Source: a virus
Direction: 5' to 3' (one strand)
DNA: 64,000 nt
Virus record (IMG/VR): IMGVR_UViG_3300042923_000502
Location: 64,001-128,000 of that record
Positions within the stretch are counted from its first letter, which is position 1, and every line of letters begins with the position of its first letter. The notes below the pieces were generated by a model, which saw only the letters and a list, made by a program, of their open reading frames with translations, was not told where the DNA came from and ran no database searches. This document shows, one piece after another, positions 2,215 through 10,938 of this stretch. The translations under genes and the position numbers were made by a program.

Positions 2215-2991
2215 ATGACACTTAATAAGGTACACGTTACTATTGCAAGCATCCTATTCTTTATCGTTGGATACTTCACATCATCTTCAACAATTGAAAT
2301 TGTATCTGCGGTATCCGGTTTACTTTGTGTATGGCTTGCGGCGAAAGAGAGTATATGGAGTTATCCTATTGGATTCGTCAATATAGCGGCATTCATGTAT
2401 ATATTTTGGGGTGCTGGATTGTATGCCGATTTTACATTGCAAATTCTATTCGCCGCATTAAGTGCTTATGGTTGGGTTTATTGGCTTAAAGGTAAAGGCA
2501 ATCACACCGTAAAGCCTACAAAGCGTGTAACGACTTCAGAAATTATTTTGTATATCGTAATTACAATTGTAGGCACGTTCCTATGGGCTAACTTCAACCT
2601 TATGGTATTCCATGGTGTAGCGCTTCCTTACTTTGACGCTTTTGTAGCAATCCTAAGTGTCATTGCTCAAATCATGCTTTCGCGTAAACGGCTTGAGAAT
2701 TGGTATGTATGGATTGTGGTAGATGTACTATCTATTTGGATGTATTGGTACAAAGACTTGCACCTCTTATCGTTGTTGTACGTATTCTTCCTTGTCAATG
2801 CGGTCTATGGATTAATTGCATGGAAAAGCGAGTTCAGAAAATTGCAAGAGGAACGAATGATAAATAAAATGATTAAGAATCAAAAGTATATTGAAGAACA
2901 AACTCCATGGGTTAAATTCATTACAGAACATCAAGGAACATATTACACTACCGATGATCCAGAAAATCCGTTTAACAAAGGTGGCAAATAA
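2215..2991 (+). CDS. pnuC: Nicotinamide riboside transporter PnuC
   Basis: Multi-TM protein with GLLCVWLA, LYAD..LQ, YGWVYW, PYFDAF, ENWYVWIVVD; followed by nadR. Confidence 0.92.
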   Translation: MTLNKVHVTIASILFFIVGYFTSSSTIEIVSAVSGLLCVWLAAKESIWSYPIGFVNIAAFMYIFWGAGLYADFTLQILFAALSAYGWVYWLKGKGNHTVKPTKRVTTSEIILYIVITIVGTFLWANFNLMVFHGVALPYFDAFVAILSVIAQIMLSRKRLENWYVWIVVDVLSIWMYWYKDLHLLSLLYVFFLVNAVYGLIAWKSEFRKLQEERMINKMIKNQKYIEEQTPWVKFITEHQGTYYTTDDPENPFNKGGK

Positions 2992-2992
2992 C

Positions 2993-4033
2993 ATGAAGAC
3001 AGGACTTATTCTTGGCAAGTTCATGCCCTTACACAAAGGGCATGAATACTTAATAAATTACGGATTGAATAATTGTGATATACTCCATGTCGTTATTTGT
3101 AGCATATCGAAAGAACCAATTGATGGTGATTTGCGTCATAGTTGGATAGAGAAAGCTTTCATTGATGAAATTTGTGAAGGCAAGCTAATTCTTCATCATC
3201 TTGAAGAAGATTGGATGCCACAAGAACCAAGCGATTGCGTGTCGGAAGATGCATTCTTTGGATGTTGGGCTGGTGTCATGGAAGGACTTTGCAAGACTAA
3301 ATTTGACTACATGTTTGCATCGGAAATGTATGTACATCGTGTATCTCAAGAGCTTGGATGCGAACCAGTGCTTGTTGATCTTGCAAGAGATACGGTTCCA
3401 ATTAGTGGAACTATGATTCGTGAAAATCCTATTGAAAATTGGAAATTCATGAGTAAACATGTGGCAAGTTACTTTGCCAAGAAAGTGTTGATCATTGGCG
3501 GTGAAAGCACAGGTAAGTCAACCATGACTAGAATGCTTGATCAACACTATACGGAAAGAGGTTATCTCGCTTTTGGCGTTCAAGAATATGCAAGATACTT
3601 TATTGACATGGTACACGATGGGAACATGGACTACTTAACTTTTGATGATATTACTCATTTTGGTCAAGCTCAAATGAGTGAAGTTAATAGCAATGTAAGA
3701 GTTGGATTTCAAGTCGTTTTCTCAGATACTGATGCTATTGTATCCAAAGTGTTTCAACAAACATATTACGGTAAAACATCACCTGAGCTTGATGAAGTCA
3801 TTGACAAGGAAGAATGGGACTTGGTTCTATTCCTTGAAAACGATGTGCCATGGGTTGATGATGGTCAACGTAATCTTGGTGAAAAGAAGCAAAGAGATGA
3901 ATTTCAGCACAAGCTTTATGTTGAAGTCTATAACAAAAAGAAAATGCGTAATGTCGTATTTATTAATGGGAATTGGGATCAGCGTTTTGAAAAGGCAAAA
4001 AAAGCTGTTGACAAAATGCTCGGACTAATGTAA
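2993..4033 (+). CDS. nadR: NadR-type NMN adenylyltransferase / ribosylnicotinamide kinase (no HTH domain)
   Basis: GKFMPLHKGH, ISGTMIR, P-loop GGESTGKST, EYAR, DTD, PWVDDGQR. Confidence 0.92.
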   Translation: MKTGLILGKFMPLHKGHEYLINYGLNNCDILHVVICSISKEPIDGDLRHSWIEKAFIDEICEGKLILHHLEEDWMPQEPSDCVSEDAFFGCWAGVMEGLCKTKFDYMFASEMYVHRVSQELGCEPVLVDLARDTVPISGTMIRENPIENWKFMSKHVASYFAKKVLIIGGESTGKSTMTRMLDQHYTERGYLAFGVQEYARYFIDMVHDGNMDYLTFDDITHFGQAQMSEVNSNVRVGFQVVFSDTDAIVSKVFQQTYYGKTSPELDEVIDKEEWDLVLFLENDVPWVDDGQRNLGEKKQRDEFQHKLYVEVYNKKKMRNVVFINGNWDQRFEKAKKAVDKMLGLM

Positions 4034-4058
4034 GATAAAATAAAAGAGGTGATACAAA

Positions 4059-4403
4059 ATGGGAAAGAAAGGTGATATTAGAGTTGGTGCTGAAGAAAGA
4101 CATAAAATACCGAATTCAGAAGTTAGAGGTTATCTTAACCAGTTAAAAAAAGAGGAAAAGCAAAAAGACTCAAGAAGTTTGGAGATATTAAATGCACAAA
4201 TAGCAACATCATCCGATGCATTTGGTAGTTTGGTACTTTCATCAATCATTGGACTTATAGTGACTCATTATTATCCAAATTTTAATAGTGGTATATATTG
4301 GGTTGGACTGTTTCTAACTACAGGCTTTATAAATTCATTTAAGTTAAATCGGAAAAAGGTTTTAAGAGACGACTACATTCCAAGTTGGAAAAAGGAGAGA
4401 TAA
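4059..4403 (+). CDS. Hypothetical membrane protein
   Basis: RBS GAGGTG; two hydrophobic segments. Confidence 0.55.
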   Translation: MGKKGDIRVGAEERHKIPNSEVRGYLNQLKKEEKQKDSRSLEILNAQIATSSDAFGSLVLSSIIGLIVTHYYPNFNSGIYWVGLFLTTGFINSFKLNRKKVLRDDYIPSWKKER

Positions 4404-4576
4404 ATTATGAATAAAGATATCGCAGTTACGGTTAGAAGAGTGTTGGTTGGACTTATTATGACTATTTTAATGTTTGATGGATATGACAAAGACACAAGTT
4501 ATTTTTGGGCATCGTACATGGTGCTTTGTGCATTGTTAGAAGGAATTTTATTTAATATTAACGGAGGAAATAAGAA

Positions 4577-4822
4577 ATGACAACATTGACAATACAACAA
4601 AAGGTAAAAAGTGTAGTAGGAAAGATCAAAGGCATTCCAGCAAAAGAAGTAAGTATTAAGGATTCATTTGAAAATCTTGAATTTGACGGATTTGATATGG
4701 ACGAAATGGTTGAAGTTCTATCAGATTATTATGACATTGATCTTGGAGTAGAATTTGACTACACAAGGCATACACATGTTGGACATGTGGTTAAGTTGGT
4801 AGAAAAGCTATCTAATTGGTGA
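4577..4822 (+). CDS. Acyl carrier protein homologue lacking the phosphopantetheine serine
   Basis: Aligns by eye with AcpP over its length; LGADSLD is replaced by LEFDGFD; GGAGG RBS. Confidence 0.75.
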   Translation: MTTLTIQQKVKSVVGKIKGIPAKEVSIKDSFENLEFDGFDMDEMVEVLSDYYDIDLGVEFDYTRHTHVGHVVKLVEKLSNW

Positions 4823-5407
4823 TAACAAGTGTAAGATAAAATGAAGGTGGTGACAATATGTTTTTGTTGATGTGGGGATTGTCGATTATTATATCATTTT
4901 TTATTTTAAGAAAGGCAGTTAATATACAAAATAATTTTTTTGAAAATGATCTTGGATTTCTTATTACGATTATAATTCTATGCATTCTTCCTTTCGTAAA
5001 CATACTCATTTCTCTTGGACTACTCGTAGCAACAATTATTGATGAAAATAATTATGATGTTAATGATGTTGTAAAAATCATTTTCTTCATTAAGAAGGAG
5101 AAAAAATAATGGCATTGCATACTTTTAATTTAACCATGAGAAATACAAACAAAAGAACTATTTTCCATGATTCTCTTATCACACACGGAAGACAGCGTTT
5201 GAACTTTCGTTTCCAAAGGAAAAGATTTGAAAAAATTTCTCAAATTCGTCAAGTCAGAGAATTTGATCGTAAAAGTAAAATGTTCCTTCGAATTGAAATA
5301 CAAAAGGTGATTTATCCACGCAAAGACATTCGCAAGAGTAGACCAAGTAAATTCATGTATAGGGAAGTCTAGTACTCCCTATACATATCCCAAAAGGAGG
5401 AATAGTA

Positions 5408-6514
5408 GTGTTAAACTTTTTTACAAAAGAAGATTACATGAAGTACGTTGAACAAGGATACATTTCACGCAAAGAACATCCAGAAGATTCTAATGTTGTA
5501 ATATTGAACTATACGGAACAAACGGTATTTGAACGCAAATGGAATGGCATCACACTTCAATGTCGCGGTTTGATCTTAAATGAAGCAACAGGAGAGGTGT
5601 TGGCTAGACCTTTTCCTAAATTTTTCAATTACGGTGAAACAAGCGGATTGAATGTTTCTATCCCACAATCACAACCAGAGATTACTATTAAACATGACGG
5701 TAGCCTTGGTATCATGTATCGCTTAAATGGCAAGATTCGATGGGCTACAAGGGGCAGTTTTGTTTCGGATCAAGCTAAGATTGCACAGGAAATTTGGGAT
5801 CAAGAATACTCTCAGTATGAAAATGTTGTACCAAATGAAATCACATTATTGGCGGAAATTATTCATCCATTAACAAGAGTTGTTGTTGACTACAATGGTC
5901 TTGAAGATTTGATTTTAATTGGAATGACCAATAGATTTACTGGTTCTGATTATAATCATATGCATCTCAATGCTTTTGTAGGAAGCCAAGTTCCTATGCC
6001 AGTGACAGATAAGGTAAAAGGAAGTTTGCAAGAAATATTAAATGTTGCAAAAACACTTAATCACAATGAAGAAGGATTTGTATTGTCTTGGGATGATCCA
6101 AGCGGAGGAAATAAAATCTATCGTCTAAAAGTGAAGGGAAATAAATACCTTGAAGTTCATCGTATCATTCATGGCATGAGCTTGAAACAAAAAGTTGAGT
6201 CGTGGGCTAATGGTAACTTGATTGACTATATTAAATCTCTTCCAGAAGAATTCCGTCCAGAGATTGAGGATACAGCATTTAAATGTGAAAGTATTTTAAT
6301 CGACATTCTCCAAGATGTTTACAAGTATTATCAAATAGCGGAGAAACGAGGACGTAAAAATTACGCTCTTTGGATGCAAAAGAATGCTCCTACACATCTT
6401 CATGGATTTTTATGGCTTTTGTATGATGGAGAAATCATACAAATGAATGATAAAATGAAACAATATATTGTTAAAAACTATAGAGAATTGATTGGAGGAA
6501 ACAACAATGGGTAA
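5408..6514 (+). CDS. T4 Rnl1-family RNA ligase
   Basis: CRGLI, RPFPKFFNYGE, motif I KHDGSLG, EGFVL, RLKVK. Confidence 0.9.
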   Translation: MLNFFTKEDYMKYVEQGYISRKEHPEDSNVVILNYTEQTVFERKWNGITLQCRGLILNEATGEVLARPFPKFFNYGETSGLNVSIPQSQPEITIKHDGSLGIMYRLNGKIRWATRGSFVSDQAKIAQEIWDQEYSQYENVVPNEITLLAEIIHPLTRVVVDYNGLEDLILIGMTNRFTGSDYNHMHLNAFVGSQVPMPVTDKVKGSLQEILNVAKTLNHNEEGFVLSWDDPSGGNKIYRLKVKGNKYLEVHRIIHGMSLKQKVESWANGNLIDYIKSLPEEFRPEIEDTAFKCESILIDILQDVYKYYQIAEKRGRKNYALWMQKNAPTHLHGFLWLLYDGEIIQMNDKMKQYIVKNYRELIGGNNNG

Positions 6515-7550
6515 ACTCAATAATCTGCATATTTTTGTAGGTTTGCCAGGTAGCGGTAAAAGCACTAAGGCGAAAGAGATGGTAAAACAAAACGGTAACA
6601 CAATTTTACTATCGACAGACGCTATTAGAGCAGAACTTGGTGATGTGAATGATCAAAGCAAGAACAATGAAGTATACGAAATATATTATAAACGCGCAGA
6701 AGAAGCGCTCAAAGAAGGAAAAGATGTAATTCTTGATGCTACCAATACAACTGTAAAGTCAAGACGAGTTGCGGTTGAGCGATTGAGAAAATATGTGACA
6801 AGAATTGTAGCTCATTATTTTAATGTCGATTATGAAGTATGTTTATACAGAAATAACACAAGAGATAGAGTTGTTCCATATGATGTAATTAAACGTATGT
6901 ACAAGGCACTTCAAATTCCAACTTGGTCAGAAGGATTCGATAATATCGTATTTCATAGTGACGAAGGAATAGAATTTGATGATGATCTCCTAAATGGAAT
7001 TTGTGGTATGAATCTAAGAGGAATGGAAGATTATATTTCAATGCCACAGACATATGAAGAAATTATGGGAGGTAATCCATTTTGGGGTAATATACTTCAA
7101 GAGATTTGGGAGCTTCCACAAGACAACTCATTTCATTCCTTTAGTGTAAGTAGACACACATACTATGTTTGGAAGTATATTCGTGAAAACTACGATGGAG
7201 AAGATAAGATTGCTATGTTATGGGCGGCATTGTTTCACGATGCTGGTAAAGGATTTTGCAAAAACTTCAAGAAATACGAAGATGGTAGCGTAGCACGTTA
7301 TGCTAACTTTGTTGGGCATGAAAATGTGAGTGCTCAAATGGCGGCTATCGTATTGAGTCAATATTATGACACAGAATTTGTATTGAAAGTAATTGAAATC
7401 ATTCAATATCACATGCGTTTGATGCAAATTGGTGGAGATGGATCAATTCATAGCTTGGATAAATCATATAGAAAGTTGAATAAATTCCTTGGTGATAGCT
7501 TAACGGAGAAACTTGAGTTTTTCTATGAAGCAGATACTAATGCAAAATAA
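6507..7550 (+). CDS. Polynucleotide kinase fused to a C-terminal HD domain
   Basis: GLPGSGKST, STDAIR, LDATN, then FHS..H, ALFHDAGK, GHE, YHM, EAD. Confidence 0.88.
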   Translation: MGKLNNLHIFVGLPGSGKSTKAKEMVKQNGNTILLSTDAIRAELGDVNDQSKNNEVYEIYYKRAEEALKEGKDVILDATNTTVKSRRVAVERLRKYVTRIVAHYFNVDYEVCLYRNNTRDRVVPYDVIKRMYKALQIPTWSEGFDNIVFHSDEGIEFDDDLLNGICGMNLRGMEDYISMPQTYEEIMGGNPFWGNILQEIWELPQDNSFHSFSVSRHTYYVWKYIRENYDGEDKIAMLWAALFHDAGKGFCKNFKKYEDGSVARYANFVGHENVSAQMAAIVLSQYYDTEFVLKVIEIIQYHMRLMQIGGDGSIHSLDKSYRKLNKFLGDSLTEKLEFFYEADTNAK

Positions 7551-7568
7551 AATGAAAGGATAAAAGAT

Positions 7569-8312
7569 ATGAATCTTTATGGAGTGGGTGGAGTTTATAA
7601 AATAACAAATTCTCACAATGGGAAAGTGTATATTGGAAGCTCAAATAATATAGGTATTAGATGGAATAAACATCTTAGCTTGCTTAGAAATGGAAAAAGT
7701 AAACAGAAGTTAATGCAAAAAGATTTTGATAGACATGGAGAAAGTTTATTTAGTATATCAATTTTAGAGAAGATAAATGTCGAAAAAGAAAGGTTTGAAA
7801 GGGAAGATTTTTATATTGAAAAATTTAAATCATACAATGAAGAGTTTGGATACAATACCCATCAAAAGTCAACTTCTCCAGTTGGAAGAAAAGTTAGTGA
7901 AGAAACAAGAAAGAAGATTGGAGAATCTCAGATAGGAAAAAAATTAAGTGAAGATCATAAGAATAATATTTCAGAAGGATTAAAAGGAAGAGTTCAATCA
8001 GAAAAAACTAAAAGAATAATAAGTGAAAAAAATAGAAGAAAACATATTTCACTTGAAGATGAGGTTTCAATAAGAAGTAAAATATTAAGTGGAATTTTAG
8101 CTAAAGAAATTGCAAAGGAATTTAAACTTAACCAGATAACAATAGGAAGAATTAGAAAGGAAATGGAAAAAGAAGGTTTGCTAATGTCAAAAAAAGAAAG
8201 AAACACAAGAATAAAAAACGATTTGAAAAATGGAATTTCTATTAAAGAAATTTCTAAAAAATACAATATAACAGAAACAAGTGTACGAAATAAGAAAAAG
8301 GAGATGGAATAA
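7569..8312 (+). CDS. Free-standing GIY-YIG homing endonuclease with NUMOD3 repeats
   Basis: GVYKITN..KVYIGSS..RW..H, GYN, SEETRKKI / SEDHKNNIS / SEKTKRIIS repeats. Confidence 0.9.
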   Translation: MNLYGVGGVYKITNSHNGKVYIGSSNNIGIRWNKHLSLLRNGKSKQKLMQKDFDRHGESLFSISILEKINVEKERFEREDFYIEKFKSYNEEFGYNTHQKSTSPVGRKVSEETRKKIGESQIGKKLSEDHKNNISEGLKGRVQSEKTKRIISEKNRRKHISLEDEVSIRSKILSGILAKEIAKEFKLNQITIGRIRKEMEKEGLLMSKKERNTRIKNDLKNGISIKEISKKYNITETSVRNKKKEME

Positions 8313-8315
8313 AAA

Positions 8316-9224
8316 ATGAGTCAAAAAAAATTCTGTGACGTTATAAGATATGGTCATAAGACAACCAAAGGAATATTCAATATTGGTGATCCAATTACAG
8401 TAACAGAGAAAATTGACGGTGCAAATGCAAGTTTTAAACGTGATGGAGATAAGGTTCTTGCATTTTCTCGCAATAATCCTCTTGATGAATCAAATAATCT
8501 TGGTGGATTCTATCAATGGGTTCAAGCGAATATTGACCCTAAAAAGCTTCTTGATGGTGTAATTTATTTTGGAGAATGGCTAAATCCACACAAAGTTAAA
8601 TATGCACCTGAACACACTAAGACCTTCATTCTCTTTGCTATCTTCAATGAATTCACACAAGAATATGTAAACTTCTCTATGGTTAAAGATGAAGCAAGAC
8701 GTTTGAATCTAAAACTTGTTCCAGTGTTTTATGAAGGTGAATATCAATCCTTTGAACATCTTCAATCTTTCGTAGGAAGAACGGAATTGGGCGGTGTACT
8801 TGGTGGAGAGCCTATGGGAGAAGGTGTTGTAATTGTTAACTACGATTACAAAGACAAGTACGGCAATCAAATTTTCACTAAGATGGTTGTTGAAAAGTTC
8901 CGTGAAGTACAAAGCCAAAAAGAACCACGTGATCCTAATACTCCTGAATCCATTGAATCTCTATGGGTGAAAGATAATATGACAAAAGCACGTGTAGAAA
9001 AGATGTTGCATAAATTGGTGGATGAAGGTATAATAGAGGAAGAGTTCGGTATCGAAGATATGGGTACTATCCTCAAAAACATTAATCGGCGCTTGATTGA
9101 AGATATGATCAAGGAAGAAGTTGATTACTTGCCAGAAGGATATGAACAAAAGGAAATCGGTAGAGCGGTTGCTGCGAAGTCTCCAACGATTATTAAGGAG
9201 ATCATTAAAGAAAGACAAGTGTAA
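8316..9224 (+). CDS. Rnl2-family RNA ligase
   Basis: EKIDGANAS, FGEW, VPVFYEG, GEGVVI, K.V.EKFRE. Confidence 0.85.
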   Translation: MSQKKFCDVIRYGHKTTKGIFNIGDPITVTEKIDGANASFKRDGDKVLAFSRNNPLDESNNLGGFYQWVQANIDPKKLLDGVIYFGEWLNPHKVKYAPEHTKTFILFAIFNEFTQEYVNFSMVKDEARRLNLKLVPVFYEGEYQSFEHLQSFVGRTELGGVLGGEPMGEGVVIVNYDYKDKYGNQIFTKMVVEKFREVQSQKEPRDPNTPESIESLWVKDNMTKARVEKMLHKLVDEGIIEEEFGIEDMGTILKNINRRLIEDMIKEEVDYLPEGYEQKEIGRAVAAKSPTIIKEIIKERQV

Positions 9225-9470
9225 GATAAAATAAAAGGAGGAATTTCTAAGTGTCAAAAGAAGTTGGAATTGGACTTATAACAAAGACAGTATTGCACTT
9301 CTTAAATATTATTGATAACAGAGGTGTAGTGCTTATTACAAATGAAGTGACTATGAAGGAAGTTCTCAAGATTGCAATTGAGTATAACATTCCTGACCAT
9401 CTAATGACAAACAAGAAAGTGAGAATTGTCGATGATAATTGCTCGCTAGGTTATTTTACTGCTATCACAT

Positions 9471-9707
9471 TTGAATAAGGAGGAATATGTCATGAAAATG
9501 TATACGAATATGGAGTCTTGGAAAGAATTCAAAGATTGGAATCCTGAAGGAGAAGAAATTTGGGTGTGGAGATACGAATCAGAAGTGCAAGATGATAAAG
9601 TTTACGAAATTGAAGTTGATACAGATGATGTTTTCGATCTTGCAATTGAATTTGATGAATACGATGACGCATTCTTAATTCCATTAAACTCAGTTGACTG
9701 GGTATAG
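9471..9707 (+). CDS. Small acidic hypothetical protein
   Basis: Asp/Glu- and aromatic-rich ORF in the operon. Confidence 0.55.
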   Translation: MNKEEYVMKMYTNMESWKEFKDWNPEGEEIWVWRYESEVQDDKVYEIEVDTDDVFDLAIEFDEYDDAFLIPLNSVDWV

Positions 9708-9717
9708 GAGGATAAAC

Positions 9718-10938
9718 ATGACTTACATTGACATTCAAATTCCATCAAAAGTTGATCACATTATGGATGTTATTGGTGATTATGGTCACTCTGCTTATGT
9801 GGTCGGAGGATGCGTAAGAGATTCCCTTTTGGGCATCTCTCCCAAAGATTGGGATATTGCAACAAGCATGAATCCAAAGACAGTTATTTTGGCATTCGAA
9901 AACCTTGGATACACAGTTGTTCCTACTGGAATTAAACATGGAACAGTAACTATTGTTATTGATGGAGAGCATTTTGAAGTTACCACATATCGCAAAGATG
10001 GAAACTATTCTGATGGACGTAGACCAGATGAAGTTGTATTTACACATCTTATTGAAGAAGATTTGGCACGTAGAGATTTCACAATTAATGCTATGGCTTA
10101 CAATGAAGATGGTTTAGTCGATCCATTCAATGGCTACTATGATCTTCAAGCTAAAATCATTAGAGCGGTAGGAGTACCATCTGATCGTTTTAAAGAAGAT
10201 GGATTGCGTATGTTACGTGCTATTCGATTCTCAGCGACCCTTGGATTTGATATTGAACCAAGAACATATCATGCAATTTTTAACAATCATTGTTTACTAG
10301 AAAATATTTCTGTAGAGCGTAAACGTGAAGAATTGTATAAGATACTTCTTTCCGACAATGCTAGACAAGGAATACTTGATTTGCAAAGAACGTTGTTGAT
10401 GGATCATATCATTTCAGAAATTACAGATGAAAATTTTCTTGATCTTGACAAAATTCCTAAATTTTATGGACTACGTTTAGCTTATTTGCTACTCGACTTT
10501 CATGAGGATAAAGTTAGAGAAATTCTAAACAGTTTAAAGGTTGACAATGAAACAAAGAAGTTGATTATTAATGGCATTGGTGGATATGATCAGATTGATG
10601 ACAAATTTTTCATTACAAGTTACGAAATGAAAAATTTAATCCGCAATTACGGATCACGTGCATTTTGGGGTTCATTGTTGATTGCCAAGTCTTTACATGG
10701 AGACGAATACAATCATATGATCAATTTGTATCAAATTATCATGAACAACAACAAGCAGGGGAAAGAACCTATTTGGCTTAAAGACTTAGCTATTGATGGA
10801 AATGATGTAAAGAAAATGGGTTATGAAGGAAAAGAAATAAGATATGTGCTTGACGAACTTCTTTCATATGTCACATATTTTCCTGAGAGAAACAATAGAG
10901 AATCGCTATTTTCATACATGGAAGGAGGTGTAATATAA
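9718..10938 (+). CDS. cca: tRNA nucleotidyltransferase (CCA-adding enzyme, class II)
   Basis: VGGCVRD, DWDIAT, EVTTYR, DLARRDFTINAMA, EDGLRMLRAIRF, SVER. Confidence 0.92.
   Translation: MTYIDIQIPSKVDHIMDVIGDYGHSAYVVGGCVRDSLLGISPKDWDIATSMNPKTVILAFENLGYTVVPTGIKHGTVTIVIDGEHFEVTTYRKDGNYSDGRRPDEVVFTHLIEEDLARRDFTINAMAYNEDGLVDPFNGYYDLQAKIIRAVGVPSDRFKEDGLRMLRAIRFSATLGFDIEPRTYHAIFNNHCLLENISVERKREELYKILLSDNARQGILDLQRTLLMDHIISEITDENFLDLDKIPKFYGLRLAYLLLDFHEDKVREILNSLKVDNETKKLIINGIGGYDQIDDKFFITSYEMKNLIRNYGSRAFWGSLLIAKSLHGDEYNHMINLYQIIMNNNKQGKEPIWLKDLAIDGNDVKKMGYEGKEIRYVLDELLSYVTYFPERNNRESLFSYMEGGVI

Follow-up and report, generated by a model that had tools for sequence, protein, structure and literature searches.

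Bacterial acyl carrier proteins (ACPs) of the AcpP/AcpA type (PF00550, TIGR00517), especially in their apo form, are the closest described counterparts of the phage protein analyzed here. The two share a length of about 80 amino acids (aa), a helical bundle, an acidic helix II with the pattern D-x-x-D-x-x-E and a hydrophobic core (equivalents of V7, I10, I11, F28, L32, L42, L46, F50 and I54). They differ at the acceptor residue, which is Ser in AcpP/AcpA and Gly in the phage protein, in helix II, which is more acidic in the latter, and in genetic context, the phage gene having no fab neighbours.

A protein retained after loss of the phosphopantetheine serine has been described in Plasmodium falciparum, whose mitochondrial ACP lacks this residue and is functional as a binding subunit for Isd11-Nfs1 (PMC8547962). 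The phage protein resembles it in both respects, i.e. the serine has been lost and the protein kept. However, the Plasmodium protein is eukaryotic and organellar, carries a different replacement residue and represents an independent loss; moreover, its partner is Isd11-Nfs1, while no sign of an LYR-type partner was seen in the phage. DltC is another small carrier-fold protein, found in Bacillota, which works at the membrane together with small membrane partners, and it is among the fold matches of the phage protein. Unlike the latter, it needs Ser36 as well as DltA, DltB and DltD; the phage has no adenylating enzyme, and the sequence matches of its protein are ACPs of the fatty-acid-synthase type, not DltC.

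Orphan ACP genes are also carried by phages of several groups (PHROG 5934), where they stand alone among small early genes. Examples are found in Vibrio phages eugene 12A10, helene 12B3 and ICP1 (ORF97), in Cronobacter phage GAP32 and in Ackermannviridae, e.g. phiMAM1 (gp092). Like the gene analyzed here, they have no biosynthetic partners encoded nearby. They differ from it in that their products are 25-30% identical to our protein, most keep the DSL motif and none occupies the position from nadR to rnl1; a tblastn query with the window protein recovers none of them. In our alignment DSL was present in the outgroup phage ACPs and in a canonical ACP, as well as in ICP1 ORF97 and GAP32_159. The gp092 protein of Serratia phage phiMAM1 (L032, 2465-2737), annotated as “acyl carrier protein”, reads W-F-D-E-L-D, with Glu in the column of the acceptor Ser, and for this member of the Ackermannviridae the name is probably wrong. 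Because phiMAM1 gp092 has Glu at this site, serine loss in orphan phage ACPs is, as far as the alignment tells, an event that recurs in unrelated phage families.

The ACP-like gene and its family

The window, i.e. the whole 64,000-nt stretch of DNA that was analyzed, comprises bases 64001-128000 of the 170,562-bp IMG/VR virus record IMGVR_UViG_3300042923_000502, which CheckV rates as complete. The ACP-like gene and its associated signals are listed below (window coordinates).

4563-4567, + strand: Shine-Dalgarno sequence GGAGG, 9 nt 5′ of the ATG of the ACP-like gene, read from the sequence
4577-4822, + strand: ACP-like gene, 81 aa plus stop codon, by ORF translation; product net acidic, pI 4.8
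4685-4735, + strand: residues 37-53, DGFDMDEMVEVLSDYYD, equivalent of the ACP recognition helix II
4688-4690, + strand: codon 38, GGA (Gly), in the column of the phosphopantetheine-acceptor Ser in HMMER and MAFFT alignments

The start codon (4577) overlaps the TGA of an upstream 57-aa ORF as ATGA, an arrangement that suggests translational coupling of the two genes.

Relatives of this gene are few. Seven sequences were found, which fall into four lineages (numbers preceded by L denote the loci compared with the window). The first, the Gly clade, is composed of the window protein, that of L014 (79/81 residues identical) and those of L001 and L008 (86% identity), all four originating from different samples. 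The remaining lineages are represented by L004 (56% identity), L006 (28-29%) and L005, which is 33-34% identical to the window protein and 42% to that of L006. A maximum-likelihood tree of 10 sequences was not resolved, and relationships are described here by pairwise identities only; these pair the Gly clade with L004, and L005 with L006.

The family was sought in several sequence collections. No match was obtained by megablast of the locus against known phages, nor by tblastn when 50,697 phage records were searched with the window protein, so at the sensitivity of these two methods the ACP-like family is absent from the cultured or deposited phages. A word-indexed search of 5.8 billion proteins gave the same five proteins and no others with either the sequence or the profile as query, and exhaustive phmmer added one further relative (56%) besides generic ACPs. 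Only one close relative was found in a scan of viral contigs, and neither metagenome contigs nor 185,579 species genomes yielded further family members in pattern scans.

Gene neighbourhood

The sequence-only reading placed the gene between NAD genes and RNA repair genes, and this proved accurate: pnuC-nadR (2215-4033) precede it, and rnl1, pnk-HD, rnl2 and the gene for a CCA enzyme (5408-10938) follow. The immediate surroundings are as follows.

2215-2991, + strand: PnuC nicotinamide riboside transporter (Pfam NMN_transporter, E 4.7e-52)
2993-4033, + strand: NadR-type NMN adenylyltransferase / ribosylnicotinamide kinase (Pfam AAA_28 and HxGH-type matches; synteny)
4059-4403, + strand: 114-aa protein with a charged N-terminus and hydrophobic, TM-like segments (by eye); found in the Gly clade only
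4407-4580, + strand: hydrophobic mini-ORF of 57 aa, seen in the window and L014 only; its stop codon and the start of the ACP-like gene overlap
4858-5109, + strand: 83-aa mini-protein with two hydrophobic TM-like segments (by eye) and the C-terminus K-I-F-F-I-K (BLASTP, alignment)
5408-6514, + strand: Rnl1-type RNA ligase, first gene of the downstream tRNA-repair cluster (Pfam RNA_lig_T4_1, E 6e-17)

The 114-aa protein shares 46% identity with its counterpart in L001 (2125-2457) and 69% with that in L008 (5655-5999). Within the end of nadR, just 5′ of the 114-aa gene, there is a promoter-like sequence, TTGACA-17-TAAGAT (4008-4036), of a kind that is no commoner here than in shuffled sequence; the five small genes at 4059-5372, the ACP-like gene included, could form a transcription unit of their own. 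The last of them (5109-5372) is an ORF of 87 aa with a very basic, noise-like product that is nevertheless conserved (46% identity to L001, 2746-3021; an 87-aa gene occupies the same place in L014) and has no Pfam match. A hairpin with a 13-bp stem (5354-5387) overlaps the 3′ end of this ORF, just 5′ of the ribosome-binding site of rnl1. Further downstream, a GIY-YIG homing-endonuclease-like gene (7569-8312; Pfam E 7e-12, with traces of NUMOD3 and HTH) lies between pnk-HD and rnl2; it is probably a mobile insertion, because L001 and L013 have a different gene, of about 100 aa, at this position.

A NadR-type gene is located 5′ of the ACP-like gene in 7/7 loci, with 0-2 genes counted between them; in L004 the truncated first gene corresponds to the NadR C-terminus (52% identity). 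In the same seven loci the ACP-like gene lies upstream of the genes for Rnl1 and/or Pnk-HD. NadR was considered as a functional partner of the ACP-like protein and rejected: of the 17 viral loci that encode a NadR homologue (29-76% identity), the close relative alone carries the ACP-like gene, and the nadR locus of Lysinibacillus phage LysYB1 is without it. Because just one of the 17 NadR-bearing viral contigs has both, the order of the two genes looks like an inherited arrangement, not functional coupling. The NadR protein (2993-4033) also gave a weak, below-cutoff Pfam match (E 0.0017) to the C-terminal domain of citrate lyase ligase, an enzyme that acts on a carrier protein; most likely this merely reflects the shared HxGH nucleotidyltransferase superfamily.

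Another neighbour is the 2-TM mini-protein, a homologue of which (about 80 aa) is encoded directly 3′ of the ACP-like gene in 6/7 loci. Its homologues were located at the following positions.

L008: 6282-6536
L006: 3416-3667
L004: 1174-1416
L005: 729-956
L014: 2829-3083
L013: 8001-8237

P45 and N48 are invariant in this family, which has no Pfam match and one weak PHROG match of unknown function; the ESM Atlas was uninformative. An obligate partnership was rejected, as L001 has the ACP-like gene without the mini-protein and L013 shows the reverse. The mini-protein is thus a frequent neighbour of the ACP-like gene, not an obligate one, and it evolves far faster (34% versus 86% identity between the window and L008).

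Genes for the enzymes of a carrier pathway were searched for as well. The complete 170.6-kb record contains no phosphopantetheinyl transferase (PPTase, PF01648), AMP-binding enzyme (PF00501) or PlsC-type acyltransferase (PF01553), these being the three families searched, and no second PP-binding gene. Likewise, no cognate carrier-loading enzyme is encoded in the seven local contexts of the ACP-like gene.

The deposited phages nearest to the window phage are distant, judging from protein identities: Rnl1 is 44% identical to that of Moorella phage MTATph1 and about 40% to those of Tsamsa-like Bacillus phages, and NadR is 37% identical to that of a Lysinibacillus phage. Because of these matches, and because a related module is present on a contig of a Paenibacillus assembly, the host is probably a member of the Bacillota. 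The contig in question (L013, from Paenibacillus sp. assembly GCA_038006885.1) is phage-like, has 143,665 bp and carries the module YqeY-PnuC-NadR-(2-TM)-Rnl2-Pnk/HD-CCA. It also encodes RNase H, YopX and an Acb5-family protein, and may offer a host-range clue for this phage group.

Homology to acyl carrier proteins and predicted fold

The gene had been described from the sequence alone as an ACP look-alike. Matches of the family profile and of the protein to Pfam, PHROG, PDB and NCBIfam entries identify it as a true ACP homologue. Queried alone, the protein gave a borderline match to Pfam PP-binding (PF00550; E 8.9e-4, 19.9 bits versus a cutoff of 20.8) that nevertheless spans profile positions 1-66 of 67, and it matched PHROG 5934, “acyl carrier protein”, with E 4.6e-4. 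A phmmer search of the PDB returned about 40 ACPs (best E about 1e-3). The signal was stronger with a profile of five family members, which matched the Bacillus subtilis ACP (2x2b, 1hy8, 1f80) over residues 8-77 with E-values of 1.6e-9 to 5.6e-9; all 57 remaining entries among the matches listed (82 matched) were carrier proteins. PF00550 was matched by 5/5 family members tested (best E 9.8e-6). The NCBIfam model for AcpP equivalogs (TIGR00517) was missed by a wide gap (24.5 bits versus a cutoff of 70.45), and the protein is, by its sequence, a divergent relative and no AcpP equivalog.

An AlphaFold2 model (pLDDT 72, pTM 0.54) contains helices at residues 6-18, 41-52 and 68-78, the second of which lies within the equivalent of helix II. 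Confidence in the model is moderate, with a pLDDT of 58 around residues 31-40. Nearly all of the best 50 Foldseek matches were ACPs, with TM-scores mostly of 0.6-0.67; the small size of the protein keeps the E-values weak (0.037 or higher), and the fold assignment is therefore based on the uniformity of the hit list, the VIA-align Z-scores and the sequence profile. VIA-align superimposed 70-77 of the 81 residues on solved ACPs (Z 8.5-7, rmsd 2.2-2.9). Many of the fold matches are solved complexes in which an ACP is a bound subunit, and the ESM Atlas returned generic ACP clusters alone. The anticipated ACP fold was thus borne out by the prediction of an ACP-type helical bundle that both Foldseek and VIA-align relate to ACPs, and the protein has true ACP homology together with such a fold.

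Loss of the acceptor serine and conservation of helix II

The DSL motif of canonical ACPs is DGF in the window protein, as the by-eye alignment had proposed, and Gly38 occupies the serine column in every alignment. In the HMMER alignment to E. coli-type AcpP, D37-G38-F39-D40 stand opposite D35-S36-L37-D38, with E43 aligned to E41; the family profile aligned to B. subtilis ACP and the MAFFT alignment with Ser-bearing relatives place Gly38 in the same way. A sequencing error was considered as a cause and ruled out, since codon 38 reads GGA in three assemblies (window, L001 and L008) and DGF was found at the protein level in a fourth (L014).

All four copies of the Gly clade read E-F-D-G-F-D. The other lineages vary at this site: L004 has M-D-S-F-D and L006 has M-D-S-I-D, each with Ser encoded by AGT, and L005 has M-S-D-M-D, with Asp in the serine column. 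Ser, Gly and Asp are all well suited to the N-cap position of a helix. The motif of L004 and L006 can be written D-S-[F/I]-D-x-D-E; it retains the canonical-looking D-S-x-D-x-x-E, and these two proteins could well be modifiable by host AcpS. A consistent absence of the serine from phage homologues, as had been anticipated, was therefore not borne out: outside the Gly clade, the closest syntenic proteins (56% and 28% identity) still read D-S-[F/I]. On the pairwise identities and by parsimony, Ser is probably the ancestral state, lost twice (to Gly and to Asp) among the four lineages.

A different residue might in principle be modified instead of residue 38, leaving the protein a carrier. Candidates exist in S26, S30 and S49, which are common to 4/4 Gly-clade copies. 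However, none of them follows an Asp at the N-terminus of a helix; S30 aligns with AcpP S27, a residue that is not modified; and neither S26 nor S30 is conserved in L004, L005 and L006, while S49 is replaced by Glu in L005. We regard modification at another serine as highly improbable.

The acidic residues around the vacant site have been retained. In AcpP, D35, D38 and E41 were found to be needed for recognition by AcpS (bioRxiv 10.1101/2025.01.28.635281). Their equivalents in the phage protein, D37, D40 and E43, are all present, and D40, D42, E43 and L48 of helix II are invariant alignment columns across the family lineages. The helix is even more acidic than that of AcpP (V40 is replaced by Asp and M44 by Glu), but the acidic pair E47/E48 is only partly retained, as S49/D50.

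Selection on the ACP-like gene

Loss of the acceptor residue may indicate a gene in decay, a possibility the sequence-only reading had tied to close homologues that keep the serine. Such homologues do exist, so that this part holds to the letter; decay does not, as the copies have diverged to dS of about 0.75 under strong purifying selection. Between the three diverged Gly copies dN/dS was 0.082-0.084 at dS of 0.72-0.79 (Nei-Gojobori). An ACP homologue devoid of the acceptor Ser has thus been kept under selection, and it is the most conserved product of its module: among eight syntenic genes compared between the window and L008, the ACP-like protein had the highest identity (86%) and the lowest dN (0.064). 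The corresponding identities are 81% for PnuC, 78% for Rnl1, 76% for NadR, 70% for Pnk-HD, 69% for the 114-aa protein, 55% for YqeY and 34% for the 2-TM mini-protein. Recent decay or a pseudogene is ruled out by dN/dS of 0.08 together with the divergence, and from these substitution patterns the ACP-like gene is functional, not decaying.

These data also bear on the idea that the family comprises genuine carriers for phage-directed acyl or aminoacyl transfer, charged by host loading enzymes, of which the Gly clade would be a neofunctionalised or partly disabled offshoot. Such an origin would be in line with the D-S-[F/I]-D-x-D-E motif and AGT serine codons of L004 and L006, and with the DSL kept by the orphan ACPs of Vibrio phages eugene 12A10 and 1.187.O, by ICP1 ORF97 and by GAP32_159. 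It is at odds with the two losses of serine in four lineages, with the strongest constraint in the module acting on a Gly protein, and with the lack of any acyl-handling enzyme in the phage (PPTase, AMP-binding and PlsC-type families) or in the seven local contexts. Overall, a genuine carrier seems improbable.

Proposed function

The explanation that we favour, and consider reasonably probable, is that the ACP-like protein is a cofactor-independent, ACP-derived protein-binding module, acting as a host-ACP mimic or as an adaptor. The gene would be a phage-specific descendant of the ACP of type II fatty acid synthesis. In the Gly clade the 4′-phosphopantetheine arm would no longer be needed and cannot be received at the canonical site, while the ACP fold and an extra-acidic helix II, the surface by which ACP docks onto all its partners, have been kept. 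We infer from the sequences that the function is exerted through docking of helix II. The reasoning is that the cofactor site has changed twice in four lineages while the docking helix has stayed fixed, which argues for a protein that can do without the arm but not without the surface. A fixed fold and acidic helix II combined with a free cofactor residue are the opposite of what is expected of a working carrier, and it is this pattern that points to a binding module. The strong purifying selection on the Gly copies and the lack of carrier-loading enzymes in the phage agree with it, and precedents exist in the serine-less Plasmodium protein, in phiMAM1 gp092 from an unrelated phage family and in the many solved complexes that contain an ACP as a bound subunit. 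The ancestral function of the family may have used the arm, in which case the Gly clade changed function.

Two forms of such a module can be envisaged. In the first, the protein would imitate host ACP while not being modifiable itself, and would fill the site at which a host protein binds ACP. In the second, it would serve a protein of the phage or of the host as a small, acidic adaptor subunit, comparable to the serine-less Plasmodium mitochondrial ACP with Isd11-Nfs1.

The mimic could take the form that the sequence-only reading proposed, i.e. a permanent apo-ACP decoy. It would titrate host AcpS, the FASII or PlsX enzymes, or a defence or toxin protein that depends on ACP, and would thereby shut down host lipid synthesis or disarm immunity. 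This is a sub-case of the binding-module explanation, with a host target. Retention of the equivalents of AcpP D35, D38 and E41 is compatible with it, as is the acidic helix II in general, and the gene and its neighbours form an island that probably serves takeover and counter-defence (kinases, NAD salvage, tRNA repair). Keating, Carey and Cronan reportedly found in 1995 that apo-ACP and a non-modifiable ACP inhibit growth of E. coli, which likewise counts in favour of a decoy. Against it, the Ser-bearing relatives, which share the synteny and are apparently orthologous, would be substrates and not dead-end decoys; no known defence system is linked to ACP; and the surface is only partly retained, S49/D50 standing in for E47/E48. 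We therefore consider the specific decoy role possible but rather unlikely. An adaptor role would, in our analysis, fit the evidence equally well, and the broader proposal of a protein-binding module derived from ACP accommodates both.

Implications

No functional study of serine-less phage ACPs was found in the searchable literature on phage ACP function, anti-defence roles and the ACPs of ICP1 and Ackermannviridae, which holds annotations only. New here are both the Gly variant and the lineage of Bacillota-type phages that carries it. Databases name such genes “acyl carrier protein” or give them no name at all, and the carrier label is wrong for the serine-less ones.

A more far-reaching suggestion is that non-modifiable ACP mimics recur among phages as a class of proteins for manipulating the host. 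They would have arisen independently in phages of Bacillota (Gly, Asp), in Ackermannviridae (Glu) and in others, and would dock onto a host protein that binds ACP (AcpS, FASII or PlsX enzymes, or some immune or stress factor dependent on ACP) and so shut it off. On the sequences compared we regard this as unlikely; if it were true, the present family would be a natural test set, since it combines Ser, Gly and Asp forms within one synteny.

The family provides a clean natural comparison, in which Ser, Gly and Asp occur at the cofactor site of proteins encoded at the same gene position. Since no other protein of the module is as well conserved as the serine-less form, the function of this protein would seem not to require the cofactor. 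ACP is among the most connected bacterial proteins, and an unloadable copy of its docking surface would be a simple means of interfering with lipid synthesis or with ACP-dependent regulators.
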